From a virus: a DNA stretch of 64,000 nt. The notes beneath the pieces are model-generated. The model was given only the letters and a program-made list of their open reading frames with translations, made no database searches and was not told the DNA's origin. Location of the stretch: IMG/VR virus record IMGVR_UViG_3300044981_000021, positions 1 to 64,000 of that record; one strand, written 5' to 3'. A program made the position numbers and the translations under genes. Below are positions 50,314 through 64,000 of the stretch, piece by piece. Positions within the stretch are counted from its first letter, which is position 1; each line of letters begins with the position of its first letter.

Positions 50314-50365
50314 TTTCCTTCTCCCTTCGGAAAAATTGGGGCGAGCATTGCACTCGCCCGCAGGC

Positions 50366-50824: not shown

Positions 50825-50871
50825 TGATTTTCTCTCTCCTGTGCAAGTTGCACATTAACTCAGATGAAGAG

Positions 50872-50900
50872 AGATTAAACAGCGATTCATTATTTGTCAA
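50872..50900 (-). promoter_or_regulatory. sigma70-type promoter TTGACA-17-TAATCT
   Basis: Consensus match. Confidence 0.55.
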
Positions 50901-50906
50901 GAGATT

Positions 50907-50993
50907 TGGTCCTGGCAGCAGGAGTTCAACCCGCACGCCCATTACGAGCACTGCATCCTAAGTGCAGCGTGTCTAGCATTCCACCATGCCGGG
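50907..50993 (-). tRNA. tRNA-Leu(TAG)
   Basis: Cloverleaf, loop CTTAGGA, long variable arm, CCA. Confidence 0.85.
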
Positions 50994-50995
50994 AC

Positions 50996-51079
50996 TGGTG
51001 CCCATGGAGCGATTTGCACGCTCACGCCTTGCGGCAGCGGGTCTTAAATCCGCCGTGTATCCTATTCCACCACATGGGC
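50996..51079 (-). tRNA. tRNA-Leu(TAA)
   Basis: Loop TTTAAGA, long arm, CCA. Confidence 0.85.
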
Positions 51080-51085
51080 AAAATC

Positions 51086-51174
51086 TGGTGCATTGGGAGA
51101 GATTTCAACTCTCATTACCCGTAGGGTAGATCGTTTTACAGACGATTGCGACCAAGCGTATTCGCCTCCAATGC
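51086..51174 (-). tRNA. tRNA-Tyr(GTA)
   Basis: Loop CTGTAAA, long arm, CCA. Confidence 0.88.
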
Positions 51175-51175
51175 A

Positions 51176-51261
51176 TGGAGGAAGGTAGAGGAGTTTAACC
51201 CCCATCCCCGTAGGGAGCGACTGGGTTCAGGCCAGTTTGACACACGGTGTCCGTACCTTCC
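51176..51261 (-). tRNA. tRNA-Ser(TGA), C33
   Basis: Loop CCTGAAC, long arm, CCA. Confidence 0.8.
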
Positions 51262-51262
51262 A

Positions 51263-51350
51263 TGGCGGAGAATATGCGAGTCGAACGCATTCGCCCCTTG
51301 CGGGTGCTCTTGTTTAGCAGACAAGCCCCTTGCCGTCCGGGTCATTCTCC
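51263..51350 (-). tRNA. tRNA-Ser(GCT)
   Basis: Loop CTGCTAA, long arm, CCA. Confidence 0.88.
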
Positions 51351-51752
51351 GATAATAAATTCTTTATATTTATTGCCTACAACAATCATCCATTTGTTGC
51401 CCTTTAATTTACCGTAGGGAATTTCATAACAGTCGCCATCGTTGGTGACCACAAACAACACGTCCGCCGCGTTTACGTTAAACGTGGCATATCTAGCCTT
51501 ACCGTCGGCCCGCATTGATGTTGAGCACAAACGAACAACCCACTTAATTCCACGCTTGCCAATTTTCTTTTGGCAGGTAACTCGTACTTGTATTCGAGAA
51601 AATTTTCCATGCGCAAAAACCACAAGATCGAACGGCTGACTATCGGTCAACGGTATGCATACGGTATGGCCTAGCGATGTATAGTGGGCGATGGCCACAC
51701 CTATACCGTGGTCGCCTTTTTGTTTCGAGCCTCGATGTTCATTTGGCTTCAT
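51342..51752 (-). CDS. PD-(D/E)XK endonuclease (group I intron-associated type)
   Basis: KGDHGI...IPLTDSQPFDLVV...IQVR...YEIP. Confidence 0.8.
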   Translation of the reverse strand: MKPNEHRGSKQKGDHGIGVAIAHYTSLGHTVCIPLTDSQPFDLVVFAHGKFSRIQVRVTCQKKIGKRGIKWVVRLCSTSMRADGKARYATFNVNAADVLFVVTNDGDCYEIPYGKLKGNKWMIVVGNKYKEFIIGE

Positions 51753-51775
51753 ATCGTTAATCTAACATCTAATCT

Positions 51776-51863
51776 TGGTCCGGCCTCTCGGACTCGAACC
51801 GAGAATGCTTTTTAGGGCGGATGATCTTGAGCCATCTGCGGCTTCCAGTTTCGCCAAGGCCGG
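51776..51863 (-). tRNA. tRNA-Leu(CAA)
   Basis: Loop CTCAAGA, long arm, CCA. Confidence 0.88.
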
Positions 51864-51871
51864 ATAAATTG

Positions 51872-51943
51872 TTATAGGGATAAACTATACGACAGCCATG
51901 AACGGCTGAGGTTCGAGAGTCGCAATGAGCGTAGAAGAGTCAT
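51872..51943 (-). CDS. leader peptide 3 MTLLRSLRLSNLSRSWLSYSLSL (Leu/Ser/Tyr codon sensor); may be the tail of ORF 51872..52078
   Basis: All 6 Leu codons, 5 of 6 Ser codons and TAT; stop lies 8 nt upstream of the Leu/Ser/Tyr tRNA block. Confidence 0.7.
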   Translation of the reverse strand: MTLLRSLRLSNLSRSWLSYSLSL

Positions 51944-52207
51944 TGGGGTTACTATGACCGCGCCGATTGCTGTCATGTGAATCAGCGCAGACCGTGCATC
52001 ATTGGCGATTGACCTATCCTCGCGAAAGCCATCTGAGACTTGAATTCCCGTTTCGCTTAACTCAATGTGACAGCCCATTATAGAGTTAATGTCGGCACCC
52101 TTTACTCTCAGCCGCCTCGGGTGCGAAATGTCCGGTGAAGCAATCGTTCGGTCGTACAGGTCTTTCTATTGGGTGGAATGTCTATCGCGACGTTCCGCGT
52201 TTAAAAT

Positions 52208-52282
52208 TGGGAGCAGGTACCGGATTTGCACCGGGTCTAAGCGTTATGAGCGCTTCGTATTGTCCTGCGCTACTAACCTGCT
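52208..52282 (-). tRNA. tRNA-CAT (Met; initiator/elongator/Ile2 identity unresolved)
   Basis: Loop CTCATAA, CCA. Confidence 0.75.
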
Positions 52283-52288
52283 TCGATG

Positions 52289-52318
52289 ATTAAAGCATGA
52301 GCGCGGGACGCGAGTCAA
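52289..52318 (-). promoter_or_regulatory. promoter for tRNA block 3 (TTGACT-18-TTTAAT, extended -10)
   Basis: Consensus match directly upstream of tRNA-CAT. Confidence 0.55.
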
Positions 52319-52321
52319 GTT

Positions 52322-52885
52322 TTATTCCGTGTCGAACTCAACCATTTCTTCGCCCTTGAATTTTACTTGTTGAAGAATTTCTAGTGGAATCAATCCATTC
52401 CTATATGCGACGATTACGCGATATTCTTCGAGTTTCAACTGACCCTTGAGTTTGTTGCACTCTAGGCAACAAGGAACTTTGAGTTTTCCGCCAAGACTTC
52501 GGGGCGTAACGTGGTCCTTGGTCCTAATAGCGTCCTTGGTGCAGTCTGTCATGTCCCGTCCGCAGTAAAAGCAACTGCTGTAATACTGCCGTGGCGTGAT
52601 ATTCGGGAAAAGCTTAATTCCAGGAATTTTGGGGGCCGATAACTGTATCGACTTAGGTTTTTTATCAGGAGCTAGGCGAATAAGGTGTTTTTCGCCAACG
52701 GTATGCGGAAGTACACAGGTTCCGTTCGGAGCAACACATTCTACTGGTTCTACCGAAATACCGCCACGGGGAACATTTCCAAAATGATATTGGAAGCGTT
52801 GATCGGCTTCTGTGATATCTTCGGCATCACAGGCAAGAATAATCTTGCCCCCGCTATAGCGGTCGCGATAGATGTAGTGCTTCAT
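52322..52885 (-). CDS. HNH endonuclease
   Basis: CFYCG...TKDHVTPRSLGG...CCLECNKLKG. Confidence 0.85.
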   Translation of the reverse strand: MKHYIYRDRYSGGKIILACDAEDITEADQRFQYHFGNVPRGGISVEPVECVAPNGTCVLPHTVGEKHLIRLAPDKKPKSIQLSAPKIPGIKLFPNITPRQYYSSCFYCGRDMTDCTKDAIRTKDHVTPRSLGGKLKVPCCLECNKLKGQLKLEEYRVIVAYRNGLIPLEILQQVKFKGEEMVEFDTE

Positions 52886-53057
52886 GGTTGGGCTAGGTTA
52901 ATTTATGGTCAGCGGCAAGTCAAGTTTCTCGCTTTAACATTTTAGTTATAACGCCATCGTTATTTTTACAACCTGAGCTATTTTGCTCAGTATTGGCTCC
53001 CCAAACTTTATAGCCTTGTCACAGATCGTGACATTCCAACCAAGAGAGGAAAACACA

Positions 53058-53327
53058 ATGAACGTGCAAACACTGGCTGAAATCATCGAAAACCTGAGAG
53101 CGCAAGGCAAAGCATTCAACGAAGCCGCCGATACGCTTCAGGACAACAGGGGAAACCAGCAGAACGGAAATGGCCGCGCTAACGGCTTTTTAAGGCTGCC
53201 TCCACACGGAAACGCTGGGCGGCACATGAGCGCGGAGACTCGCAAGAAAATGTCGGCATCGCAGAAGGCGCGACATGCTTCCAAGCATATCCCTGCGATA
53301 GTGTCGGTTGATGATATGGTTGCCTAG
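53058..53327 (+). CDS. small protein with NUMOD3-like DNA-binding motif
   Basis: GRHMSAETRKKMSASQKAR; GAGG RBS. Confidence 0.6.
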   Translation: MNVQTLAEIIENLRAQGKAFNEAADTLQDNRGNQQNGNGRANGFLRLPPHGNAGRHMSAETRKKMSASQKARHASKHIPAIVSVDDMVA

Positions 53328-53477
53328 GCAACTAATTCATCTTCGGGTTCTGGCGTAGGTATGTATTCATCGTATCCGCCCCAGAACCCGTCGTCCTTTG
53401 CGACAGGGGGTGCGTAGGACCACAGGATGATCCACGCTAGGATTAGGGCAACGGTGATTAGGTAGGCAAGCATAAAA

Positions 53478-53552
53478 TGGTCGGGGTAGCTGATTCTGCC
53501 ACAGCAACCCCTCGGTCCCAGGCCGAGTGCTCTGCTTTTGAGCTATACCCCG
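53478..53552 (-). tRNA. tRNA-Pro(TGG), C33, atypical T arm
   Basis: Loop CCTGGGA, CCA. Confidence 0.8.
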
Positions 53553-53557
53553 AAATT

Positions 53558-53633
53558 TGGTGGGACGGGCCAGAATCGGACTGGCTACCACATGGGCTTC
53601 AGCCATGCACTCTACCGGCGAGTTCCACGTCCC
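53558..53633 (-). tRNA. tRNA-Phe(GAA)
   Basis: Loop CTGAAGC, CCA. Confidence 0.8.
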
Positions 53634-53687
53634 AAAATATTTTAGTGCGCTTGATAAAGTTTACGCAACCACGTCATAATAACACTT

Positions 53688-54227
53688 ATGAAGATAGCCA
53701 TCCATCATGGTAAACGCCGCAAACTTTATGAAACAAATTGCCAACACTGCAAGATATCGTTTTATACGCCAAAACATAAACTAGACAAACAGTTGTCAAA
53801 GTATTGCTCCTTGCCGTGTTTCCACGCGGCCTCACGAACGGCAACAATAAAACCGTGCGCCATATGCGAAAAACAAATCACGAGAACTCTAACGGCCTTG
53901 TCGCGATGCAAAAGTGGCCTATTTTTCTGCTCACGTAAATGTAAATCCATAGGCCAAAGATTTGAAAATACAACCATGGCCGCCTGCCATCCTGCGCATT
54001 ACAAGGATGGTTCTTCGGCCTACGGTAGAATTGCGATTCGCCACCACGGTAATCACTGCAATCGTTGTGGCTACAAAGAACATATTGAAATACTCCGCAC
54101 TCACCATAAAGACAGAAATAGCGAAAACAACTTGCCGGATAACCTTGAGCGCTTATGCCCAAATTGTCACGAAACTGAACATTTTTTAGCGGGCGATGGT
54201 GTTTATACTGGACACAAACGCCACTAG
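53688..54227 (+). CDS. HNH endonuclease with Zn-finger repeats, inverted within tRNA array
   Basis: CxxC/YCS/FCS repeats; HHKDRN..NN...NLERLCPNCH. Confidence 0.85.
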   Translation: MKIAIHHGKRRKLYETNCQHCKISFYTPKHKLDKQLSKYCSLPCFHAASRTATIKPCAICEKQITRTLTALSRCKSGLFFCSRKCKSIGQRFENTTMAACHPAHYKDGSSAYGRIAIRHHGNHCNRCGYKEHIEILRTHHKDRNSENNLPDNLERLCPNCHETEHFLAGDGVYTGHKRH

Positions 54228-54243
54228 CTCACTGCTCAAAATT

Positions 54244-54318
54244 TGGTGGAGGCGCGGAGAGTCGAACTCCGGATACTTGGTTGCAGGCCAAGTGTGTTCC
54301 CGCTAGCACTACGCCCCC
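54244..54318 (-). tRNA. tRNA-Ala(TGC), C33
   Basis: Loop CCTGCAA, G3.U70 pair, CCA. Confidence 0.88.
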
Positions 54319-54320
54319 AT

Positions 54321-54396
54321 TGGGGTATACGAGGAGGGTCGAACTCCCTAAAGACTGTTCCACAGACAGTCGCCGCACCGTTTGGCTTCGCATACC
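54321..54396 (-). tRNA. tRNA-His(GTG)
   Basis: Loop CTGTGGA, G-1:C73, CCA. Confidence 0.88.
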
Positions 54397-54402
54397 ATAA
54401 CT

Positions 54403-54477
54403 TGGAGCTGAACGTCAGGCTTCAACTGACATCTCCGAATTCACAAGATTCGTGTTCTGGTTTTGAACTAGTTCAGC
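54403..54477 (-). tRNA. tRNA-Thr(TGT), G37
   Basis: Loop CTTGTGA, CCA. Confidence 0.8.
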
Positions 54478-55173
54478 AATTTCTCTAAATTCTCTTGTCC
54501 GTCTTTTCTTTCGCCTAGAAGCACTTGCTTGTTTATTTCGTGATCGAAACGTGGGCGTCAAGGCGTGGCAATTAGGGCATAGCAATTTCAGGTTTTCGTC
54601 CTTATTGTTGTCGGCGTCTCCGTTGATATGTTCTATTTCTAGGGGTATTGGTTTTTGCAGCCACTCGGTCAAGCCGCAACTTTCGCACCGATACCCACGA
54701 GTTCTAAATAAATATCCACGTAATGCATGACTAGTCCTAGCCGTTTCGGGAGAAGTGGTTAGACAATAAATCCGCATTCCGTAACACGAATTACAGAATT
54801 TCCTATGCGTCGAGCACGGCGTTCCACAATGTTCACACTGTCCGGACGTGAGTGCTCGCTTGCGGCGATGTTTTAAGTAACACGCCCGACTACACGACCG
54901 CTGCTTTCGCTTCTCGTATGACATCTTTTCGCCACAATAAATACAACGCTTATTAGCAGCTTTTTCTCTAGCCGCCAAGGAAATCCCAACTCTAAATGCA
55001 GTCAATTTGTCTTTGGCTGCCAACCATCCGATGCGCCCAACATCTTCCCTCGACATTATCGGCTGTTCCCGTGGATCGTTTGTGTATATTCTTCGTGTTG
55101 TTTTTAAGGTGCGATCCCGATTCTTGTAATACCACCTGCGACGAGCCGCACGCCTTTTATCTTGGTTGCGCAT
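54415..55173 (-). CDS. HNH endonuclease (3' end overlaps tRNA-Thr)
   Basis: CESCG..EW...PLEIEHINGDADNN..ENLKLLCPNCHALT. Confidence 0.85.
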   Translation of the reverse strand: MRNQDKRRAARRRWYYKNRDRTLKTTRRIYTNDPREQPIMSREDVGRIGWLAAKDKLTAFRVGISLAAREKAANKRCIYCGEKMSYEKRKQRSCSRACYLKHRRKRALTSGQCEHCGTPCSTHRKFCNSCYGMRIYCLTTSPETARTSHALRGYLFRTRGYRCESCGLTEWLQKPIPLEIEHINGDADNNKDENLKLLCPNCHALTPTFRSRNKQASASRRKKRRTREFREIAELVQNQNTNLVNSEMSVEA

Positions 55174-55181
55174 ATAAATGT

Positions 55182-55255
55182 TGGAGCCAAGAATACGAAT
55201 CGGACGTATGCTTCGGTCGTACCAGGACCGCGTACTGCCACTATACGATCAAGGC
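55182..55255 (-). tRNA. tRNA-Thr(GGT)
   Basis: Loop CTGGTAC, CCA; two acceptor-stem mismatches. Confidence 0.78.
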
Positions 55256-55257
55256 TC

Positions 55258-55332
55258 TGGAGCCGAGACGGCGAATCGAGCGCCGATAACGAGTTTACGA
55301 ATCTCGCATTCTTCCACTTGAATTATCCCGGC
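55258..55332 (-). tRNA. tRNA-Thr(CGT)
   Basis: Loop TTCGTAA, CCA. Confidence 0.82.
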
Positions 55333-55338
55333 CAAACT

Positions 55339-55413
55339 TGGACTGCCGTGAGCGAATCGGACGCTCGTATAAGGTTTTGCAGACCTCAGCCTAAACCACT
55401 CGGCCAACGGCAG
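55339..55413 (-). tRNA. tRNA-Cys(GCA)
   Basis: Loop CTGCAAA, U73, CCA. Confidence 0.88.
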
Positions 55414-55419
55414 TAAAAT

Positions 55420-55520
55420 CTAGGTGTACGGTCCAAGAATCGCCGCGTTCCCGAATCGAACGGACCAACGCCACTGCTGCCTTGCAAGCGACCAGCGCCT
55501 TGTTGCGCACATACACCTAG
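55420..55520 (-). ncRNA. candidate tRNA-like ncRNA (Y RNA/YrlA-like?)
   Basis: 9-bp terminal stem CTAGGTGTA/TACACCTAG, internal T-loop CCG-TTCGATT-CGG, no CCA or anticodon arm. Confidence 0.45.
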
Positions 55521-55524
55521 AACT

Positions 55525-55598
55525 TGGAGCGGGATGCCGTAATCGAAACGGCGTCTGGAGTTTGGAAGACTCCGGCCTTGCCACTAGACGAATCCCGC
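55525..55598 (-). tRNA. tRNA-Gly(TCC)
   Basis: Loop CTTCCAA, U73, CCA. Confidence 0.9.
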
Positions 55599-55844
55599 TT
55601 ACTCAACGCATACACCGTTCATGTTTGTGGCGGTGCATTCTAAACAAAATTCTACCGCATGTTTAACGCATGGATACTGCTTCCAGCCATGCCTAGCCAT
55701 GTAATGATCCCAATGGCTAGCGACCCAATAGCGGGGTCGCGAACTGGCACCAGCGCCGTGAGTCGGACACGGTACATCTGTTTTGGAGACAGATCGAGCA
55801 CCCTTTTCGTCTTCGCTGGCAAAAATCTTCTTGAACAACTTCAT
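55599..55844 (-). CDS. small hypothetical protein in tRNA array
   Basis: AAGGA RBS; fills the gap between tRNAs. Confidence 0.45.
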   Translation of the reverse strand: MKLFKKIFASEDEKGARSVSKTDVPCPTHGAGASSRPRYWVASHWDHYMARHGWKQYPCVKHAVEFCLECTATNMNGVCVE

Positions 55845-55867
55845 TAAACGAACTTCCTTTCGTAATC

Positions 55868-55946
55868 TGGCGGTCGCAGCGGAATTTGAATCCGCGATCT
55901 GTTCCGTGACAGGGAACTGGGGACGGCCTGACTCCCCTATGCGACC
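55868..55946 (-). tRNA. tRNA-Asp(GTC)
   Basis: Loop CTGTCAC, G73, CCA. Confidence 0.88.
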
Positions 55947-56133
55947 GAATCTTTACAATGCGTACAGATGCATCCCCTGCCATGCAATTTAGAGATGCAC
56001 TTACTGCACCAAAGTTGCGCCCAACCACCACAAAGTTTCTCGCCAATCACGTGCTCCTTTGCGTCCATGACGGTCATAACTGCCCCGCTGCACCTGTGGC
56101 AAAACCCGATATGTTTCACGTGCGACATAAAAA

Positions 56134-56207
56134 TGGCCCCGAGTAGTTGAATCGAACAACTGTTGGCTGATCCAGAGTCAGCAGTCTTGCCACTAAACGA
56201 ACTCGGA
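56134..56207 (-). tRNA. tRNA-Gln(CTG)
   Basis: Loop CTCTGGA, CCA. Confidence 0.88.
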
Positions 56208-56212
56208 AATCT

Positions 56213-56246
56213 TGGAGCCGGGAGTATTTTAATGAGCTATCCCGGC
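56213..56246 (-). pseudogene. 34-nt tRNA remnant/minihelix GCCGGGA-TAGCTCATTAAAATAC-TCCCGGC-T-CCA
   Basis: Perfect 7-bp acceptor stem, TAGCTCA D-arm start and CCA; anticodon and T arms absent. Confidence 0.7.
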
Positions 56247-56308
56247 GCGCTCACTCGCGGAGCGTTGTCTGAAAAGGCGATCAACCCTCCAGTCGCAACG
56301 ACGCAAAA

Positions 56309-56382
56309 TGGAAGGGAGTCTGAGAATCGGACTCAGGTCTGATGATCCAAAGTCATCGGCATTGCCATTATGCGAACTCCCT
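56309..56382 (-). tRNA. tRNA-Gln(TTG)
   Basis: Loop CTTTGGA, CCA. Confidence 0.88.
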
Positions 56383-56718
56383 AACTCTTCAACGGAATTG
56401 CGCGTACGCATCTCGCGCAAATCACAAAACTTGAATCTACATCTTTTTCTAGTTTGCGCCGCGCCTCGCGACATTCTTCCACTAGGGCACGATGGTCTGA
56501 TAGCCCCATGCGGCAGTAATCTATCGTCCCGGGCATTACAATCGCGCCTAGAAGTTCATGCTTCATAAATCCTTAACTCAAATGGCCCAAAGCGGTAACT
56601 TGTGTACGGGCTATATCCCCACATAAGCGTCCCGTTCATGCGTAACGTCTTGCCAAAACTCCATGCATCCCAATATGCGTGCCACGTTACGAGTTTGGAG
56701 CCGATAGTCATAAATCCT

Positions 56719-56793
56719 TGGTAGGGCCAACGGAAGTCGAATCCGTATTCACGCCTTGAAAGAGCGTTTACCTAGCCGTTAGTAGATGGCCCC
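56719..56793 (-). tRNA. tRNA-Glu(TTC)
   Basis: Loop CTTTCAA, CCA. Confidence 0.85.
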
Positions 56794-56799
56794 AAAACT

Positions 56800-57144
56800 T
56801 TATACGGTCGCAGAATTGGCTATCACGGCCTCCGCGTATTCCACTAAGGGGCCATAACGCCTGCTATATCTCTTGTTTTTGCTTTGCTCCTTTGGCGTTG
56901 CCCAACGAACATTGCCACGTTCGTAATGACCGTTATTGTTTATCCTTTCTAGTGTTGAACCCTCCGGCCTCGGGCCTAATTCTTACATGAATTCGCCAAA
57001 CGAAACAAATCTAAATTCTATCCCCCTGCCGCCGTAGTACCTGAAATCTTCGCAATTACTATTCATGCAACGGTATCGCGCATGGTCGAAAGATTTATAT
57101 TCCCGCTTAAATTGTTTCGTTAAGCCACTTCCCGAAAATCTCAC
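56800..57144 (-). pseudogene. HNH endonuclease with in-frame TAA (56983-56985)
   Basis: RC...YYGGRGI...FGEFM*ELGPRPEG.TLERINNNGHYERGNVRWAT; AGGAG RBS. Confidence 0.8.
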
Positions 57145-57156
57145 CGTTAATCTCCT

Positions 57157-57193
57157 AAAAAACGTTTAGCCCCGCATTGTTTTTCGGGGCTAA
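57157..57193 (-). terminator. attenuator terminator hairpin after leader 2
   Basis: TTAGCCCCG/CGGGGCTAA stem then ACGTTTTTT. Confidence 0.7.
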
Positions 57194-57199
57194 TTGAAC

Positions 57200-57212
57200 T
57201 ACGTTAAATGTA
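57200..57212. repeat. 13-bp palindrome TACGTTAAATGTA
   Basis: Family member, inside attenuator 2. Confidence 0.85.
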
Positions 57213-57226
57213 CTTTCCCCGATTGT

Positions 57227-57298
57227 TTATGGCGTACCTTCCCCCGCCTGCCATTGGGCTGGTGTCGGGAAGCAATCGGCATGAAATTGAACATTCAT
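57227..57298 (-). CDS. leader peptide 2 MNVQFHADCFPTPAQWQAGEGTP (codon sensor for tRNA block 2)
   Basis: 19 of codons 4-23 specify amino acids of the downstream tRNAs; promoter upstream, terminator downstream. Confidence 0.78.
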   Translation of the reverse strand: MNVQFHADCFPTPAQWQAGEGTP

Positions 57299-57312
57299 TG
57301 GTTAATGAAACA

Positions 57313-57342
57313 AGCCTAAAGCATGTCTGCTTGTTCTGTCAA
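57313..57342 (-). promoter_or_regulatory. promoter for block 2 (TTGACA-18-TAGGCT)
   Basis: Consensus match 14 nt before the leader ATG. Confidence 0.6.
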
Positions 57343-57350
57343 GAAAAAAG

Positions 57351-57427
57351 TGGAAGGCCGGATCGGACTTGAACCGACAACCTCAAGATTCGGAATCTTG
57401 CGCGAGTTCCCTTTTCGCTTCCGGCCC
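57351..57427 (-). tRNA. tRNA-Arg(CCG)
   Basis: Loop TTCCGAA, CCA. Confidence 0.85.
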
Positions 57428-57430
57428 AAA

Positions 57431-57507
57431 TGGTCCTAGCGACAGGATTCAAACCTGCATTCAACTGTTTAGGAAACAGTGCCGTTGTTCAGTTACGGAA
57501 CGCTAGG
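57431..57507 (-). tRNA. tRNA-Arg(CCT)
   Basis: Loop TTCCTAA, CCA. Confidence 0.85.
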
Positions 57508-57512
57508 AAAAT

Positions 57513-57811
57513 CGGCCACAAGTCAAACTGCAAACTTTCGCTAGCTACTTCGTCCTTCTGCGCTGGGCCACTCACGACGGTTAAGCTCTATCTATCCCAG
57601 CCTTCGGTCGGCTCTTTCCTCCGATTAGGGGCGTCATCTTCCAGACTTTTTGCCAACTTCGTTGGTTCCACTAGAACCATTACTGGATTGCATCTAACTT
57701 CGCCAACGCGACACTAGATCGACTTTCGGGAGCGGGTTAGATACCCGTTGCTTGGCCAAGCATCCCCTCGGCTAGTCGTCCAACCGGCAAGCGGCAGTTT
57801 TTTCGTGGCCG
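57513..57811 (-). ncRNA. candidate ~300-nt structured ncRNA in tRNA array
   Basis: Closing stems CGGCCAC/GTGGCCG and AAACTGC/GCAGTTT; many internal hairpins; no sense-strand ORF in the track. Confidence 0.6.
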
Positions 57812-57833
57812 AAATAAATATAACACGGGAAAA

Positions 57834-57911
57834 TGGTGCAGGATAGTGGACTCGAACCACTCGCCTCGGCTTTCGTAGAACCGCGCTCTAGTCCTGATGA
57901 GCTAATCCTGC
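57834..57911 (-). tRNA. tRNA-Arg(ACG)
   Basis: Loop CTACGAA, CCA. Confidence 0.9.
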
Positions 57912-57916
57912 AAACT

Positions 57917-57991
57917 TGGGAGCGCATAACCGGGTCGAACGGTTGTCTCTTAGGTAGAAGCCAAGGCTCTGTCCTGTTGAGCTAATGCGCC
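57917..57991 (-). tRNA. tRNA-Arg(TCT)
   Basis: Loop CTTCTAC, CCA. Confidence 0.82.
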
Positions 57992-57998
57992 ACAATTC

Positions 57999-58074
57999 TG
58001 GTGGAAGTGAGACGATTCAAACGTCCATCGGCCTACTTAAAAGGTAGGGGTCTTAATCGTTAGACGACACTTCC
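57999..58074 (-). tRNA. tRNA-Lys(TTT)
   Basis: Loop CTTTTAA, CCA. Confidence 0.88.
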
Positions 58075-58079
58075 AAAAC

Positions 58080-58154
58080 TGGTGGAGCGCAATGGACTCG
58101 AACCATTGTTTCCCGAGTAAGGGTCGGGTTGCCTAGCCACTGACGGAGCGCTCC
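58080..58154 (-). tRNA. tRNA-Lys(CTT), C33
   Basis: Loop CCCTTAC, CCA. Confidence 0.8.
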
Positions 58155-58160
58155 TAAAAA

Positions 58161-58238
58161 TGGTGCGGAATATTGGAATTGAACCAATGGCCTCGTCCTT
58201 ATCAGAGACGCGCTCTAAGCCAACTGAGCTAATTCCGC
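58161..58238 (-). tRNA. tRNA-Ile(GAT)
   Basis: Loop CTGATAA, CCA. Confidence 0.9.
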
Positions 58239-58239
58239 A

Positions 58240-58315
58240 TGGTGCCGGAGCCAAGACTCGAACTTGGGACTTCCTGCTTGTAGGGCAGGCACTCTGGCCG
58301 CTGAGTTAATCCGGC
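58240..58315 (-). tRNA. tRNA-Val(TAC), C33
   Basis: Loop CCTACAA, CCA. Confidence 0.85.
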
Positions 58316-58317
58316 AC

Positions 58318-58392
58318 TGGTTGAGGGCGATGGAATCGAACCATCCCGAAACAGTGTTTATAAGACGCCGCAGCGCTCCAGTGCTGCCCTCA
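58318..58392 (-). tRNA. tRNA-Ile(TAT)
   Basis: Loop CTTATAA, CCA; irregular D and anticodon stems. Confidence 0.7.
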
Positions 58393-58397
58393 AAATC

Positions 58398-58473
58398 TGG
58401 TACGAGTGGGAGGAATCGAACCTTCCGACACCGTGGTTATGGGCCACGTAATCTACCACTGATCTACACTCGC
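58398..58473 (-). tRNA. tRNA-CAT (Met or Ile2), C33
   Basis: Loop CCCATAA, CCA. Confidence 0.8.
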
Positions 58474-58698
58474 TCAACTTAAACCGCCTACGCGCCATTT
58501 ATCGTTGATTTGCGCGTATTCCTGCTCAATCTTTCCAACCCGAACCACGGTCCAACGGCGTTCATTCATAAGCGATTCTTCGTGGTCGAAGGTTACGACG
58601 TTACCGCGCTTTAATCTCCACGATGCATCTACCCATGCAGTCGTATGGCGAACACCGCCATTTACTTTACGCTCGAATTGGACTTGAACCATCCTCAT
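58474..58698 (-). CDS. small hypothetical protein in tRNA array
   Basis: Fills the gap between tRNA-Asn and tRNA-CAT. Confidence 0.5.
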   Translation of the reverse strand: MRMVQVQFERKVNGGVRHTTAWVDASWRLKRGNVVTFDHEESLMNERRWTVVRVGKIEQEYAQINDKWRVGGLS

Positions 58699-58705
58699 AA
58701 AAATA

Positions 58706-58793
58706 TGGCTGGCACGAGAGGACTCGAACCTCCAGAGGGTTGCCCCACTTCATTAACAGTGAAGCCCGCTACCAAATTACGGTTTACATGCCA
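58706..58793 (-). tRNA. tRNA-Asn(GTT) with long variable arm
   Basis: Loop CTGTTAA, G73, variable arm TGGGGCAACCCTCT, CCA. Confidence 0.82.
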
Positions 58794-58804
58794 ACGTTGT
58801 CTCC

Positions 58805-58844
58805 AAAACCAAATGGGCCTTCAGGTTAAGTTTTGAAGGCCCAT
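58805..58844 (-). terminator. terminator hairpin between leader 1 and tRNA block 1
   Basis: 11-bp stem ATGGGCCTTCA/TGAAGGCCCAT followed by TTGGTTTT. Confidence 0.75.
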
Positions 58845-58875
58845 CAGGAAAGGAGGATGCAATGAAAATGAACTC

Positions 58876-58947
58876 TTATCCCGAACGCGCCCGCACGACT
58901 CGCATTCTAATGCGATTTCGCTTTTCGCGTTTAGGTATCAAGCTCAT
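58876..58947 (-). CDS. leader peptide 1 MSLIPKREKRNRIRMRVVRARSG (codon sensor for tRNA block 1)
   Basis: 14 of codons 6-21 are K/R/N/I/M/V; ATG 6 nt after the -10 box (leaderless); terminator follows. Confidence 0.78.
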   Translation of the reverse strand: MSLIPKREKRNRIRMRVVRARSG

Positions 58948-58953
58948 TGGTCT

Positions 58954-58982
58954 AATCTACATCAGCGATTTGGGAAAAGCAA
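58954..58982 (-). promoter_or_regulatory. promoter for block 1 (TTGCTT-17-TAGATT)
   Basis: Consensus match; predicted TSS at or next to the leader ATG. Confidence 0.6.
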
Positions 58983-59254
58983 GAAGATTATTGAACACCA
59001 TTCCAAGACTGCAATCCTCGCAATCCAGATTGGATATTACTAAATCCTCCGGTAATGGTTGGCGGCCAATATGGCGAAGTATTTGGATAGCCGAACGGAT
59101 ATGGCTGAATCGTTGGCTGGGTTCTGTAGCGGCCACAAGTAGGACAATAACCACAATTAGGACAGACGCTCCCAAAATGTTGTGCATAATCTGGGTTGAT
59201 TCCTTGGGGTTGATAATTTGCTGATTGAAAATCGTTGTACATGCCGTAATTATA

Positions 59255-60043
59255 CTATTTCCAGGGTGACCCAGAGTGGATAATCTTCAAATCGGTTTGC
59301 GGATCATCGAGAACTTGCAATGGCATCCAAAAGAACCCCGATAAGCCCCATCCCGAACCCCACGAATTTTGAATCAATACGGCGGGAGGGCAACCAACGG
59401 GTCGAAGCGTGGGCGTTTCTCCAACGTCGCATCCAACCATTAAAACTTCGTGCCCTCCCATGACTTCTTCCCCTTGGGCGGGAATGGGCATAATCCCCGT
59501 TTGCGCTAGTTCGTCACTCTCGAAAGATGCATAAACCGTGAATCCAACCTCGATTGGCCATGGAGTTGGGTCGCCAATAACACTTAACGCTGTTTGCGAT
59601 CCCGTTAGGCCATGATAAGCGCCAAGTCTAAATTGTGCGGCATTGGCATCCTGCGAAGTTGTTGGCTTTTCGATATCCCCAGCGATATATGGGTAGACGG
59701 ATAATTCGCAGCACCCACTGACGATCATAGTATTACAGAGCGTTGTACCATCTGCTCCAACGTCGTTTGGAAAGTTGCCTTGGGCGATTAATTCCTTGGC
59801 GTAGGTATATTGCGGAGAGAAAATTGGGGATGCGTTGAGATATTTGCGATGAATTAATTCATTGGCCGATGTCCCGGCATGGCCCGTACACGAACCCTCT
59901 TGGCCTTGGTCTTTTATGGGGCCACACCAAATTCTTAGATCGACCACGGGAGAAGCAATCGTGGCACGAGAAAGCATTCTATGGGCGGGAAGCGGCGCGG
60001 GGATATTGCGTCCGTAGCGCCGCCCAATTGTGCTGATAGCCAT
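59255..60043 (-). CDS. papain-like (C1 family) cysteine peptidase
   Basis: VDLR, DQGQEGSCTGH, GGHEV, IQNSWG..WG..GFF. Confidence 0.9.
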   Translation of the reverse strand: MAISTIGRRYGRNIPAPLPAHRMLSRATIASPVVDLRIWCGPIKDQGQEGSCTGHAGTSANELIHRKYLNASPIFSPQYTYAKELIAQGNFPNDVGADGTTLCNTMIVSGCCELSVYPYIAGDIEKPTTSQDANAAQFRLGAYHGLTGSQTALSVIGDPTPWPIEVGFTVYASFESDELAQTGIMPIPAQGEEVMGGHEVLMVGCDVGETPTLRPVGCPPAVLIQNSWGSGWGLSGFFWMPLQVLDDPQTDLKIIHSGSPWK

Positions 60044-60646
60044 TTACTTCGCTATCCCAAGGGTAACGATGCGGGTGAACTTGCTGTGCTGATGATAAAC
60101 CACCAATTTGGAGCACTTTGCCTCGCCGCCACAAACTTCACTCGTCCAACGAGCCTGAATTCCTTCAGGGGTTAATGGCACGGGAGAGCTAGCCGCAATC
60201 TTAGCCTTTTCCTTTAGGCTTGAAGCGCTAGTTAGTTGTGGCAGGAGGGCCAAAACCGCGCTAAGCGTAGAAGTGATGACGGCATCCCAAGCAGTTACGG
60301 TTTTGACCGCTGCGGGGCTTTGGACGTGTACCGCTGCTAGTTCTGCGGGAAGGTTGGCGTTGAATGTAGTGATGGCCGCCTGCAACTTCTGTAGGTCGGT
60401 AGTAGAGTTGCTAGCTTTCCAGGTGTCGTAATCCTGCTTGATTACGTTCAGCCCTGCGGTAGCAGTTGCCACAAACGCACCTAAAAGAACGGCGTCGGGT
60501 GGACTGACAAGCGCCACGGCGGGGGCTAGAGCGTTGGCCATTTGTAGGACGACGTTAATATCTGCCAGCGCCTGATCTACCGTACACGCGACCATGGCAA
60601 AGCAAAGACTGACTGCGAGGATTGACGAAAGAATTTTGTTCTTCAT
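60044..60646 (-). CDS. putative lipoprotein
   Basis: Signal peptide ending MVA-C. Confidence 0.6.
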   Translation of the reverse strand: MKNKILSSILAVSLCFAMVACTVDQALADINVVLQMANALAPAVALVSPPDAVLLGAFVATATAGLNVIKQDYDTWKASNSTTDLQKLQAAITTFNANLPAELAAVHVQSPAAVKTVTAWDAVITSTLSAVLALLPQLTSASSLKEKAKIAASSPVPLTPEGIQARWTSEVCGGEAKCSKLVVYHQHSKFTRIVTLGIAK

Positions 60647-60650
60647 AGAT

Positions 60651-60923
60651 TTATATTTTACCTACATTGATTGGGGTTGTGTTGGACTTTTCGCTAACTG
60701 CTGCAATAGCAGAACTTGGCGGCTTCATATAAAGCGCCTTCAGGGTCACTAACGCCGTAACGATGGCAGTCCTGGCATAGTGCCTGAGACAAATAGCCGT
60801 AAAACACCCGCCTTCGTCAACCGCGTGGGCGAAGGTTGCTAGAAACGTGGCCCCAAACGTGGTGATGGCAGCCTGCCATGGGGCGGGAAGTGAAGCCCAA
60901 AACTTTTTAATCTTAGCGATCAT
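60651..60923 (-). CDS. putative holin
   Basis: Two hydrophobic segments, next to the endolysin. Confidence 0.5.
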   Translation of the reverse strand: MIAKIKKFWASLPAPWQAAITTFGATFLATFAHAVDEGGCFTAICLRHYARTAIVTALVTLKALYMKPPSSAIAAVSEKSNTTPINVGKI

Positions 60924-61278
60924 TTCCCAAGACTAGCGGAGTTATTAGAGCCAATTCGAGTAGCGCCTGTTGCACGCATCCTGCCAATAATCCCAACCGA
61001 AGTAAAGGCTAATTTTGTCGTTGATGCAATTACTGTTAACCCACAATTCTTCCACGTATGGATCAAGTTCGGGGCCAAAAAGAATCTTAGTGTCTTGAAA
61101 TGTGGTGATTTCTATTTGCGAAGGCGATTCTTTAAGGATGATTACCGCTAGCAGCGCGAGGATGATAAAACTGCAAAACCAGCGCATATAGAGAGGCGGG
61201 CTAGGTGGAGGGTTTTTGGTTCGAGAGAGAGCCTAGCCCGCTTGCCTTGTCGGCGTTGTGATAATAACAGAATGGCAA

Positions 61279-61704
61279 TCATGGATGAGTTGATGCAAGT
61301 CGATAAAAGTGCAGACGCCCCAAATCGCAGGTTTTAACCTGACTGCCATCTTCGGCCCATTTCGGGGGATTTAAATCCAGACTCATATCGAAATAAGAAG
61401 TCGCACCATTTGTTGGATCAGATACGCTAGGCATATCACCGCCAACGTCTCCTGCCACGGCTACACATTCTAGCCACGATGGGTCGTTTTCCATGGGCCA
61501 CTTGGTTGCGTTTGGGTCATTGTGATTGAAGGAAGAAAACTGGTATGGCATCAGGATGACCGTCCAGTACGACCTACCCCACCACCCGGGATTGTTCACA
61601 CGATTGCGGATCGTCCACGCTACGGCTTGCTTGGTTAGCAATAATTCTCCCCTAGCTTCTCGCCAGAGACATAGCGCAAGTAAACATTGATCTTGTGGGG
61701 TCAT
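61279..61704 (-). CDS. cell wall hydrolase (SleB/Hydrolase_2-like), putative endolysin
   Basis: WREARGE, AVAWTIRNRV, YQFSSFN, DPTNGATSY, LHFY. Confidence 0.9.
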   Translation of the reverse strand: MTPQDQCLLALCLWREARGELLLTKQAVAWTIRNRVNNPGWWGRSYWTVILMPYQFSSFNHNDPNATKWPMENDPSWLECVAVAGDVGGDMPSVSDPTNGATSYFDMSLDLNPPKWAEDGSQVKTCDLGRLHFYRLASTHP

Positions 61705-62070
61705 GCACCCTTTCGTCTTACCCTATCCCAGAATACTTGGCTGAATCCACAGGTACATTCTTCCCTAGGTGATGGACATGATCTATCGTGCCCCGAGCAG
61801 GGGATTTCACAAACTGGACGGGAAAAATCATCTAGTTGGTATGACTGCCTTTTTTGAATTGGTTCGCCACAATTGGCGCATTTTAGGGTGTTTACTGCCT
61901 TTAAACTTGGACCTGAATTGAACATTATGAAACCACCATGAACAGCTACGATCTTCGTCTGTGTCGATCCAAGGAAGAGAAACCGCCATATCGGACCTCC
62001 GCGAGCGAGATAAGGATTTTCTCGCTAATCGAAGGACTTTTCAAGCATTATTTTATAAGTCGTTGAGCGA

Positions 62071-63264
62071 CTAGCCAATTTTGCTAAGGATGGAATATAC
62101 GCTAGTGCCAATAAGCCCTTCAGTCTTATTCCACACGTAAGCCTCCGCAGACCGAATCGAGCCGACATAGTTATATTCGGAACTCCATGCATCGGGCGGG
62201 CGAAGAGACGGTAGTATTCTTATGGTTACCCCAGGGAACTCGATTGTTCTCTTGTGGTGTTTATCTCCCGTGTGTGCCTCCCGCCATTTCGTTCTTCCCC
62301 ACATCGCGGGTTGCTCCGCAGCCATGGTTTTTCCGTAGTCTTCGATCTTCCCTGCATGGCCATGGGTAAAGAGAAGCATATTAGTACCGAATTCATAATA
62401 TTTTCTGAACGACGGTTCATTGTTCACATTAACAGCGTTGCAGTTTCTATACCACGACTTCAGGCTGTCGCCCAAATGCCACGCAGATAATGGGTCGTGG
62501 TTTCCGGCCACCAAGACAACATCTACGCTTTTATATTGACCAAGCAGTGCATCAATAGCCCAAATAGAACAATCGCGAGATACGCTGAAAACCTTTTGAT
62601 ACCGACCATCCATGTTCTGCGGTGTTCCTCGTTCCGTGGTTCCAATGCGATTGTCTGCATTTTGCTGATCGTTGCCCAATACAAGTAGCGCTTTATCCGG
62701 CCTGTATCCTTCCGTCCGCGACACTAGCGCAGAAAGCGCGTTTTCCCAACACGTCTTAGCAATTTTCAGATCGTAGTCTTCGCCTCCGGTTTCTTTGCCC
62801 CAAATCAAGGCTCCGAAGTGGTGGTCGTTGATGGAGAACTCGGCTAGCGTTTCTGTTCCCTTGCCTTGTTTAGCTAGCGTCGGATATTTGGGGGAGAACT
62901 TCTCGGCCTTTTTGCGGAGTTCATTTAATTCGCCAAGTGCGGCAACGATTACGGTTTTTCTCCGCAAAAACGCCTTCACTTGGTATAACTCAACGATAAC
63001 GGGATTGGTTTTTGTGCGAACCCATATAGGCTTTCCGTTGACGTATTCTGCGACCTTTGGTTGAGACATTCCCACATCCCATTTATTGCAAATGAAGCGC
63101 TCGACTTCCCAAACGGCTAAATCAATTTTGCAATGCTCGATAAGTTGTTCGAGTGTGTGTATGCGAGTTTTGGGGAGAGAAATCGTCCACAAGTCTCCGG
63201 CTATTTCGCTCGTTTCTTTCGGTGTTTTTGTTTGTGGCACAGGACCAACTTCGGTAATCTTCAT
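62071..63264 (-). CDS. calcineurin-like metallophosphoesterase
   Basis: DHHFG, GND, GNHD, HGH, HTGDKH motifs. Confidence 0.85.
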   Translation of the reverse strand: MKITEVGPVPQTKTPKETSEIAGDLWTISLPKTRIHTLEQLIEHCKIDLAVWEVERFICNKWDVGMSQPKVAEYVNGKPIWVRTKTNPVIVELYQVKAFLRRKTVIVAALGELNELRKKAEKFSPKYPTLAKQGKGTETLAEFSINDHHFGALIWGKETGGEDYDLKIAKTCWENALSALVSRTEGYRPDKALLVLGNDQQNADNRIGTTERGTPQNMDGRYQKVFSVSRDCSIWAIDALLGQYKSVDVVLVAGNHDPLSAWHLGDSLKSWYRNCNAVNVNNEPSFRKYYEFGTNMLLFTHGHAGKIEDYGKTMAAEQPAMWGRTKWREAHTGDKHHKRTIEFPGVTIRILPSLRPPDAWSSEYNYVGSIRSAEAYVWNKTEGLIGTSVYSILSKIG

Positions 63265-63557
63265 TGATTCTCCAGTTGTTTTGAGTATTTACGGGCAGCA
63301 ATAATACCGCGAGGATTACCGAAAACATAAAAACATTTACTGCCGCGATGGTCTAGAAAAGAATAAAAGGAAAGTCTGACATTATGCCGCGCCCAATCGT
63401 AGACCGTTTCCCTGCGACCTATTTGAAGAAGTTCCATAACATCCCAAATAGTCAATACTTCATCGTCGGGAAGGGAATCGAGAATTTCTATTAAGCGATC
63501 TATCTTCGTGGGCAACCTTTTAGTTGCACGCATACGGCGGAGTATAAAGCATGGCAC
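63261..63557 (-). CDS. putative HTH DNA-binding protein
   Basis: VLTIWDVMELLQIGRRETVYDW resembles HTH_17. Confidence 0.5.
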   Translation of the reverse strand: MPCFILRRMRATKRLPTKIDRLIEILDSLPDDEVLTIWDVMELLQIGRRETVYDWARHNVRLSFYSFLDHRGSKCFYVFGNPRGIIAARKYSKQLENQ

Positions 63558-63598
63558 ACTATTTTGTGCAAGTTTATTTTTTCGATGGATCAGAAAAG

Positions 63599-63611
63599 TA
63601 CATTTAACGTA
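63599..63611. repeat. 13-bp palindrome TACATTTAACGTA
   Basis: Family member. Confidence 0.85.
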
Positions 63612-63876
63612 GGTGCTGGCGCACTTCCTCTAGCGTGACCAGCTTCTTAACTTCATCTCTAATTTCTCTCAGCGTTTCGCCCATTCCTTGATTTGCTAGT
63701 TCCTCTCTTACGGCGATCCGGAATTCCGTTTTCCAATAATCCACCGACTTCTCCCCTGAATTACCGTTGCCATTCCTGCCGTTTCTAATCTTGGCTACAA
63801 ACGTGAAGGTTTTGTCGAGGACGAGGACGCAGAAGGCGCAAGCCCCCGCTAGTTCTGGCATTGAGATATCGGGCAT
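63604..63876 (-). CDS. small membrane protein
   Basis: One TM segment plus charged tail. Confidence 0.5.
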   Translation of the reverse strand: MPDISMPELAGACAFCVLVLDKTFTFVAKIRNGRNGNGNSGEKSVDYWKTEFRIAVREELANQGMGETLREIRDEVKKLVTLEEVRQHLR

Positions 63877-64000
63877 GGCGAACTCCAATTTGGCGAAGTT
63901 TCTAAAACGCCAAGTAGATGCCATTCTAGGGGAGTTGCTACTTGCGCCATTTGACGGTAACTTCTGGGCGTGGATATAGCACTAGGAGACGTTCACACAT

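Follow-up and report, generated by a model that had tools for sequence, protein, structure and literature searches.

The leader 1 locus

The DNA considered here is the first 64 kb of IMG/VR virus record IMGVR_UViG_3300044981_000021 (positions 1 to 64,000, hereafter the window), and the element in question is leader 1, a short open reading frame (ORF) on the minus strand that is followed by a terminator-like hairpin and then by a long array of transfer RNA (tRNA) genes. The complete record of this phage spans 100,880 bp with direct terminal repeats, encodes a portal protein, a large terminase and a primase-helicase, and carries nearly all of its genes on the minus strand; near-identical DNA was present in several soil metagenomes. 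The tRNA array ran along the minus strand from 58793 to 50907. Under default settings, ARAGORN identified 25 genes in it, and relaxed ARAGORN searches combined with Rfam gave approximately 33, with all 20 amino acids represented. These genes were grouped by amino acid in successive blocks, the first of which (block 1) lies behind leader 1. The features of this locus, in the order of transcription, were as follows:

58977..58982, minus strand: -35-like hexamer TTGCTT, separated from TAGATT by a 17-nucleotide (nt) spacer; it matches TTGACA at three of six positions, without statistical support
58954..58959, minus strand: -10-like hexamer TAGATT, followed by AGACCA and the ATG at 58947; proposed promoter of a transcript that is leaderless or has a 1-nt leader
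58876..58947, minus strand: leader 1 ORF, 23 codons plus TAA (58878-58876), MSLIPKREKRNRIRMRVVRARSG, with no Shine-Dalgarno (SD) sequence and with the start context CCAATGA
58868..58947, minus strand: helix 1:2, a long imperfect hairpin in which the ORF is folded on itself (anti-antiterminator or pause hairpin), about -33 kcal/mol; followed by UUUUCAUU
58879..58895, minus strand: segment 2, candidate 5' strand of an antiterminator, comprising codons 18-23 and ending at the stop codon; pairs with 58849..58834
58834..58849, minus strand: segment 3, from folding; UCCU plus the entire 5' arm of the terminator
58812..58845, minus strand: terminator hairpin (3:4), GAUGGGCCUUCA / UGAAGGCCCAUU, 12 bp (11 Watson-Crick pairs and one G.U), 10-nt loop, -18.8 kcal/mol
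58805..58813, minus strand: U-tract UUUGGUUUU, read from the sequence; the full tail is UUUGGUUUUGG
58706..58793, minus strand: tRNA-Asn(GUU), 88 nt, the first gene of the putatively gated block (ARAGORN; Rfam tRNA, 32.3 bits)
57351..58473, minus strand: remainder of block 1, namely Met(CAU), Ile(UAU), Val(UAC), Ile(GAU), Lys(CUU), Lys(UUU), Arg(UCU), Arg(ACG), Arg(CCU) and Arg(CCG) (ARAGORN, default and relaxed thresholds)

Codon content of leader 1

The amino acids served by block 1 (Arg, Lys, Ile, Val, Asn and Met) accounted for 15 of 22 codons in leader 1. The codons that had been listed for this frame in the initial annotation were reproduced exactly (ATA, AAA, CGC twice, AAG, CGA twice, AAT, ATT, AGA, ATG, GTC, GTG, CGG and CGT), as were the classes drawn from them, i.e., both Lys codons, ATA together with ATT, and five of the six Arg codons, AGG being the one missing. 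Among all genomic ATG-initiated ORFs of 20-40 codons, leader 1 ranked first of 465 for the combined share of Asn, Met, Ile, Val, Lys and Arg (0.68, against a mean of 0.30), while just three of 1508 genomic open windows consisting of ATG plus 22 codons contained at least 15 matched codons. Dinucleotide shuffles of the 66 nt of leader 1 produced 9.8 matched residues on average, and the probability of obtaining 15 or more was 0.006-0.007. The other two frames had six matched codons each and were both interrupted by stops; the excess was therefore specific to the leader frame.

The match extended from amino acids to individual tRNA species. Cognate codons were present in leader 1 for 10 of the 11 tRNA species downstream, the absentee being AGG for tRNA-Arg(CCU), and this coverage was the sole maximum among the 1508 windows, for which the mean was 4.3. 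The codon-usage score of leader 1 was -0.37, which is unlike the genes of this phage.

Three cassettes and the partition of the amino acids

Two further ORFs of the same build were found within the array. The order of the blocks and the positions of these sister leaders were as follows:

Block 1, minus strand: Asn, Met, Ile, Val, Ile, two Lys, four Arg
Block 2, minus strand: Glu, two Gln, Asp, (Trp), Gly, two Cys, three Thr, His, Ala, Phe, Pro
Between block 2 and the long-arm block, minus strand: a weak Met
Block 3, minus strand: long-arm Leu, two Ser, Tyr, two Leu
57227..57298, minus strand: sister leader 2, 23 codons plus TAA, MNVQFHADCFPTPAQWQAGEGTP; its terminator stem ends near 57166 and its U-tract lies at about 57162-57157
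51872..51943, minus strand: sister leader 3, 23 codons plus TAA, MTLLRSLRLSNLSRSWLSYSLSL; its stop lies 8 nt ahead of tRNA-Leu(CAA)

In leader 2, 20 of 22 codons specified amino acids of block 2 (composition-controlled P = 0.00025). Leader 3 stands ahead of the Leu/Ser/Tyr block and had Leu, Ser or Tyr at 16 of 22 codons, which was the sole top score among the 1508 windows; no shuffle in 4000 scored as high (composition-controlled P < 0.00025).

An unbiased scan compared every ATG-to-stop ORF of 12-45 codons in the array spacers (43 candidates) with every run of downstream tRNAs. Its best non-overlapping hits were exactly leaders 3, 2 and 1, and the tRNA sets that fitted them best (LSY, ACDEFGHPQTW and IKMNRV, respectively) divided the 20 amino acids exactly, with no overlap. 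Summed over the three leaders, the score was 14.57, compared with 6.57 +/- 1.38 when amino-acid labels were permuted, and none of 3000 permutations scored as high. When the same pipeline was applied to four control phage tRNA arrays (RSP15, Weasels2, YB07 and a megaphage fragment), scores ranged from 4.8 to 9.7 with permutation P values of 0.02-0.3; since these controls were unremarkable, the method does not manufacture such signals. A terminator identified independently of the codon comparison (at approximately 53477) coincided with the end of block 2 as deduced from the codon set of leader 2.

The observation was confirmed as lying well beyond chance, most strongly when the three cassettes are taken together. 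The core idea of the initial annotation, that a short ORF mirrors the tRNA block behind it and is followed by an intrinsic terminator, was thereby upheld in silico, the codon match being frame-specific and significant and the sister cassettes being alike. All three leaders had 23 codons, a TAA stop and the start context CCAATGA, and their sequences were otherwise unrelated. Equal codon length combined with unrelated sequence is hard to explain otherwise, which argues, indirectly, that the frames are probably translated. The pattern TA(A/G)ACC(CC)AATGA occurred at only three sites in the genome, all of them at the leaders, although it was defined post hoc, after these sites had been seen.

Several minor features were recorded around the sister leaders. 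The leader 2 region (57157-57342, minus strand) had a perfect TTGACA ahead of the ORF. The ORF was followed by CAAUCGGGG, which has two alternative pairing partners, namely CCGAUUG in the ORF and CCCCGA in the arm of the terminator; between the leader 2 elements lay one copy of a palindrome found genome-wide, TACATTTAACGTA, followed by AGGAG and the GTG that opens a 53-amino-acid HNH fragment. The final codons of a 68-amino-acid ORF (51872-52078, minus strand), read in the same frame, constitute leader 3. Directly past tRNA-Pro (53552-53481) was a clean hairpin with UUUUUU, at about 53440-53480 on the minus strand.

Predicted terminator and alternative pairings

The 197-nt spacer that contains leader 1 folded with unusual stability (z = -4.76), and none of 200 shuffles was equally stable. 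Helix 1:2 was followed by a U-rich stretch, as found at attenuator pause hairpins, and 30 nt separated the stop codon of leader 1 from the terminator hairpin. This linker holds the motif CCUCCUU (58851-58858, minus strand), which resembles an anti-Shine-Dalgarno sequence; on the plus strand it reads AAGGAGG and precedes an antisense ORF of 120 amino acids. An 11-bp hairpin with a T-tract had earlier been noted before tRNA-Asn, and this proved to be present with one G.U pair in addition to its 11 Watson-Crick pairs. It ranked in the top two for stability among U-tailed hairpins on the minus strand of the genome, while a consensus terminator scan, limited to loops of 8 nt, did not return it with its 10-nt loop. 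tRNA-Asn starts at 58793, 18 nt past the stem and only 11 nt past the last U of the U-tract; this gap is too short to hold a promoter, so that block 1 would depend on read-through for its transcription.

No convincing antiterminator had been recognized by eye in the initial annotation, only the complementary elements TCGGGA and TCCTGA beside the hairpin base. These elements do lie within the antiterminator, and the pairing that contains them was more extensive than had been appreciated, being an extended, imperfect duplex between segments 2 and 3 (58895..58879 with 58849..58834). This 2:3 duplex had a predicted energy of -18.4 kcal/mol, with two mismatches, one bulge and three G.U pairs. By comparison, dinucleotide-shuffled upstream RNA gave -11.7 +/- 2.2 kcal/mol (P = 0.008), and P was 0.016 against random genomic 82-mers. 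In silico, the 2:3 pairing was mutually exclusive both with the terminator and with helix 1:2.

The consequences of ribosome position were modelled by folding the RNA with a ribosome footprint placed codon by codon, an approximate representation. The 5' arm of the terminator paired with segment 2 only when the ribosome was stalled at codons 3-13, and it was left unpaired by segment 2 both without a ribosome and with one at the stop codon, since segment 2 was then occupied by helix 1:2 or by the ribosome, respectively. Matched codons within this zone were those for Ile, Lys, Arg, Lys, Arg, Asn, Arg and Ile, with Arg14 and Met15 being borderline; the best stall zone comprised codons 6-12, which encode Lys-Arg-Glu-Lys-Arg-Asn-Arg.

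Promoter and translation signals

TAGATT was read at 58959-58954 on the minus strand, 6 nt ahead of the ATG at 58947, precisely where it had been placed before. An SD sequence was present at approximately half of the large genes of this phage, and (TGA)TATAAT followed at N6-8 by ATG was found ahead of other genes at 59242, 21259, 18263 and 2794 (minus strand). Likeness to these genes makes a leaderless start plausible for leader 1. More broadly, extended -10 boxes of the form (TGA)TATAAT or TAGAAT were located 6-8 nt before start codons that lack an SD sequence at 59242, 21259, 18263, 2794 and 45165 (minus strand), which suggests that some genes of this phage form a leaderless class. Because an extended -10 sits directly before several start codons, leaderless expression seems to be in use in this phage-host pair.

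The first of these positions belongs to the gene immediately upstream of leader 1:

58988..59242, minus strand: 84-amino-acid gene with its own start (TATAAT-N6-ATG) and a TAA at 58990-58988; its codon-usage score of +0.15 is in the range of real genes

The antisense ORF of 120 amino acids (58862-59224, plus strand) overlaps this gene and has AAGGAGG 5 nt ahead of its ATG; its codon-usage score was -0.09, as for non-coding sequence. Since the 84-amino-acid gene scored as coding and the antisense ORF did not, transcripts of this gene probably run on into leader 1 as well and would be stopped by the leader 1 hairpin.

Natural variation and relatives

Natural variation was sampled in Logan contigs from four soil runs, and a single variant contig (run X3) was recovered, covering 58826-58966. 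It displayed nine differences in 141 nt, while adjoining contigs from the same run (58675-58825 and 59005-59155) were identical to the window. The leader is either a recombined patch or a site at which variation is locally concentrated. Eight of the differences are described here, the ninth being near the contig end. Three changes swapped the tetraloop UAGA for UCAC, replacing Arg14 with His. Three others co-varied within helix 1:2, where CCU/GGG became UAUCC/GGAUA (Pro5 to Ser; Ser22 synonymous), and two disrupted pairing at the foot of the helix, by the AUG. Throughout these changes the frame stayed open, helix 1:2 was kept (-29.6 kcal/mol) and the 2:3 pairing became slightly stronger (-19.1 kcal/mol). 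The variant fits an RNA with a structure that matters and a peptide sequence that does not, as for a leader; it does not discriminate between an attenuator and an RNA with a structural role only.

Relatives carrying the leader 1 spacer were not found in IMG/VR or in JGI metagenomes through the neighbouring gene for a 262-amino-acid papain-like peptidase. The JGI metagenomes contained 15 peptidase loci at 61-75% identity, none of which had the 84-amino-acid gene, the spacer or a downstream tRNA array. Relatives of a 397-amino-acid exonuclease reached only 35-43% identity and were without tRNA arrays. Exact searches with tRNA-derived patterns returned an unrelated megaphage or nothing, and blastn against cultured phages gave generic tRNA-Ile matches only.

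Interpretation of leader 1

Codon statistics, sequence features and foldings that exclude one another led to the interpretation of leader 1 as a ribosome-mediated (leader-peptide) attenuator in the style of trp and ilv, which probably opens tRNA block 1 when decoding of Lys, Arg, Asn or Ile codons is slow; its working parts would be a putative promoter with a leaderless start, an ORF that is translated, and a hairpin that terminates transcription unless a stalled ribosome relieves it. The gated unit would comprise the Asn, Met, Ile, Val, Ile, two Lys and four Arg tRNAs plus a 74-amino-acid ORF. The transcript would begin at the AUG or 1 nt before it, or else arrive from the 84-amino-acid gene, and helix 1:2 would form within the RNA of the ORF. 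Were the ORF untranslated, or were the ribosome to reach the UAA that abuts segment 2, segment 3 would be left free; it would then pair with segment 4, and the resulting 12-bp terminator would halt RNA polymerase 11 nt before tRNA-Asn. With charged tRNAs scarce, a ribosome slowed at the Lys, Arg, Asn or Ile codons among codons 4-13 would cover segment 1, allowing segment 2 (58895..58879) to pair with segment 3 (58849..58834), so that the terminator would be blocked and the tRNA block transcribed. The output would restore the tRNAs that are sensed, closing a loop of supply and demand.

Taken across the array, a modular sensor of the tRNA pool is rated somewhat more likely than not, with three cassettes of the same build each testing decoding for its own block and jointly covering the 20 amino acids, and with leader 1 opening on slow Lys, Arg, Asn or Ile decoding. 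Such slowing might arise, for example, in a host that lacks those tRNAs or one whose anticodon nuclease destroys them. The result would be an on-demand and self-limiting supply of tRNA, through attenuation acting directly on tRNA genes.

Several observations weigh against attenuation at leader 1. With regard to the terminator, its 10-nt loop exceeds the usual size and GG breaks the run of U residues; the fold of segments 2 and 3 alone was no more stable than shuffled sequence (z = -0.4), and the terminator fold was still 7-11 kcal/mol more stable when a stalled ribosome was present. Given this last difference, the switch must be kinetic, as in classical attenuators. With regard to the ORF, local base composition supplied part of its Arg and Lys richness (shuffle mean of 9.8, genome mean of 6.6), and the variant turned AGA (Arg) into CAC (His), besides changing Pro5 to Ser, so that one matched codon is dispensable. 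Leader 1 has no SD sequence and its promoter match is weak (TTGCTT-17-TAGATT, with three and four matches of six, respectively); moreover, TAnnnT N5-8 RTG occurred at 325 genomic sites, and the geometry of TAGATT-N6-ATG alone was not beyond chance. The searches also found no relatives that bear the spacer, on which a phylogenetic test of the ORF and its helices would depend. Codons 16-21 (CGA, GUC, GUG, CGG and CGU) are in or beside segment 2, and stalls there would not relieve termination in the model; for this reason, leader 1 is most likely a sensor of Lys, Arg, Asn and Ile, and not of all six amino acids. The sensor proposed originally, for Arg, Lys, Ile, Val, Asn and Met, is accordingly narrowed: in the folding model, stalls at Lys, Arg, Asn and Ile codons freed segment 2, whereas the codons for Val together with CGG and CGU (17-21) are located within that segment, where a stall would favour termination. 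Finally, leader 3 lacks a canonical terminator, and on that account termination may not be the only output of this family and the leader 3 cassette may work differently.

That last point leads to the alternative that the ORF is translated and codon-matched with some other output, ribosome position steering the processing or folding of pre-tRNA or the stability of the RNA, or the Arg-rich peptide acting as an RNA-binding peptide. The stop of leader 3 only 8 nt before tRNA-Leu would suit such a role, as would the spread of matched codons over the whole of leader 1, beyond the productive stall zone, and the conservation of 23 codons in three ORFs. It would leave unaccounted for the clean hairpin, U-tract and alternative pairing over the 5' arm that leaders 1 and 2 both possess. 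A functional peptide is also at odds with the variant, in which the leader 1 peptide is not kept (P5S, R14H), and with the lack of any shared sequence among the three peptides. This alternative was considered unlikely.

A more ordinary account is that the hairpin is the intrinsic terminator of the 84-amino-acid gene, that a 23-codon frame occurs by chance in a CG-rich, structured spacer and that the tRNAs are expressed by leaky read-through. The hairpin is indeed 143 nt past the stop of that gene with no other terminator between them, and local composition lifts the expected number of matched codons to 9.8; the lack of an SD sequence, the codon-usage score of -0.37 and the failure to obtain comparative support all agree with a chance frame. 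Nevertheless, the codon match survived the control for composition (P = 0.007), the coverage of tRNA species was a unique maximum and the antiterminator had a P value of about 0.01. The chief difficulty for a chance frame is the pattern of three cassettes, which was matched in 0 of 3000 permutations, with composition-controlled P values of 0.007, 0.00025 and <0.00025 and unremarkable control arrays; an ordinary terminator with a fortuitous frame was therefore held to be distinctly improbable. Least probable of all was a small structured RNA of approximately 140 nt, possibly trans-acting, in which a long 5' hairpin is joined to a terminator hairpin by a C/U-rich single-stranded linker that resembles an anti-Shine-Dalgarno sequence (UUUUCAUUGCAUCCUCCUUUCCU), its ORF being a by-product or having a dual function like rnTrpL, for although the strong fold (z = -4.76), the loop swap and helix co-variation of the variant (typical of structure-constrained RNA), the complementarity of CCUCCU to the GGAG or AGGAG ahead of many phage genes and the precedent of attenuator-derived small RNAs (PMC7968998) are all consistent with it, it explains neither the frame-specific codon match to 10 of 11 tRNA species nor the ORF length, start context and stop common to leaders 1-3, the anti-Shine-Dalgarno motif is absent from the leader 2 linker, and no Rfam family was matched.

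Comparison with known regulatory systems

Leader-peptide attenuation is a textbook mechanism in amino-acid biosynthesis, and is known also from some synthetase genes and from resistance genes. Multivalent leader peptides are found at ilvGMEDA (Ile, Leu and Val codons) and thr (Thr and Ile codons), and further leader-peptide attenuators are trpL, hisL, pheL and leuL. Leader 1 shares with these enterobacterial attenuators a short ORF rich in codons that report on the product, with one leader able to sense several amino acids. The anatomy also corresponds: a U-rich stretch comes after helix 1:2, pairing 2:3 precludes pairing 3:4 and vice versa, the stop abuts segment 2, and the terminator is placed immediately ahead of the regulated genes. 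Among these systems, the multivalent leaders of ilvGMEDA and thr most resemble leader 1 in both logic and anatomy. The enterobacterial systems regulate biosynthetic enzymes, whereas leader 1 precedes tRNA genes, so that its output is the sensed molecule itself. It differs further in being phage-borne, without an SD sequence and possibly leaderless; in having matched codons that are mixed, rather than in runs, and that sample nearly every tRNA species of the block; and in being one of three cassettes that jointly cover 20 amino acids. The mechanism of attenuation at pheL is described in PMC3082878. A Phe-codon leader at E. coli pheV/pheU was considered as a precedent and dropped, because the region upstream of pheV in MG1655 had no such ORF and the published leaders are 3-4 nt long.

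T-box riboswitches likewise read the state of a specific tRNA pool through a choice between terminator and antiterminator, although they bind uncharged tRNA directly, without translation, and control genes for aminoacyl-tRNA synthetases and amino-acid metabolism. A cmscan search of 50000-64000 at permissive thresholds, for T-box or any other Rfam family, returned tRNA-clan hits only, and none within 58794-58990.

Biologically, the closest published example is the trn operon of Anabaena sp. PCC 7120, a long tRNA array reported to be induced by translational stress (PMC8421152, PMC10272220). As presented there, an accessory tRNA array similarly stays at a low level and is turned on once translation is compromised. 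In contrast to leader 1, control is described at the promoter, by the RHH repressor TrcR on direct repeats, and the array is cellular and governed as a whole by a single switch. The words 'leader' and 'attenuat' are absent from the text of PMC8421152. For rnTrpL/peTrpL of Sinorhizobium meliloti, termination at a leader-peptide attenuator is reported to yield a stable small RNA that carries a terminator (PMC7968998, PMC7298713); a product of about 140 nt with the same layout would be expected here. Unlike rnTrpL, a function in trans is simply a possibility for leader 1. Full-text literature searches for leader peptides or attenuation in combination with tRNA operons, tRNA arrays or phage tRNAs produced no relevant paper.

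If attenuation of this kind operates, it would explain how phages with large tRNA arrays avoid making unneeded tRNAs, and why the genes of such arrays are sorted by amino acid. It would also explain how a phage could respond, one codon set at a time, to host tRNA shortage or to tRNA-cleaving defences. The leaders would be compact natural parts that report the decoding speed of chosen codons, and the long-open question of when and how phage tRNA genes are expressed would become directly testable with reporters.

Other features of the tRNA array

tRNA-Asn(GUU) has an extra arm of approximately 15 nt (TGGGGCAACCCTCTG); its discriminator base is G and the CCA end is encoded in the gene. A long extra arm is unusual for tRNA-Asn, and the Rfam score of this gene was the lowest in the array (32.3 bits); alignment with the class II tRNAs of the phage (Leu, Ser and Tyr) did not reveal a clear relationship. 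The 74-amino-acid ORF inside block 1 (58474-58698, minus strand) begins 7 nt past the CCA of tRNA-Asn and stops 1 nt short of tRNA-Met. It matched neither a Pfam nor a PHROG family, and its one homologue, at 58% identity, was on another viral contig without tRNAs. tRNA-Trp(CCA) (55745-55820) and the second tRNA-Cys(GCA) (55441-55517), both on the minus strand, were detected by relaxed ARAGORN only and were absent from the Rfam list; these may be divergent or decayed copies. Genes for homing-type endonucleases were interspersed in the array on the minus strand, comprising two HNH genes (54415-55173 and 52322-52885), a PD-(D/E)XK gene (51342-51752) and an HNH fragment (56983-57144); the tRNA regions of T4 and T5 are alike in having scattered genes of this type.

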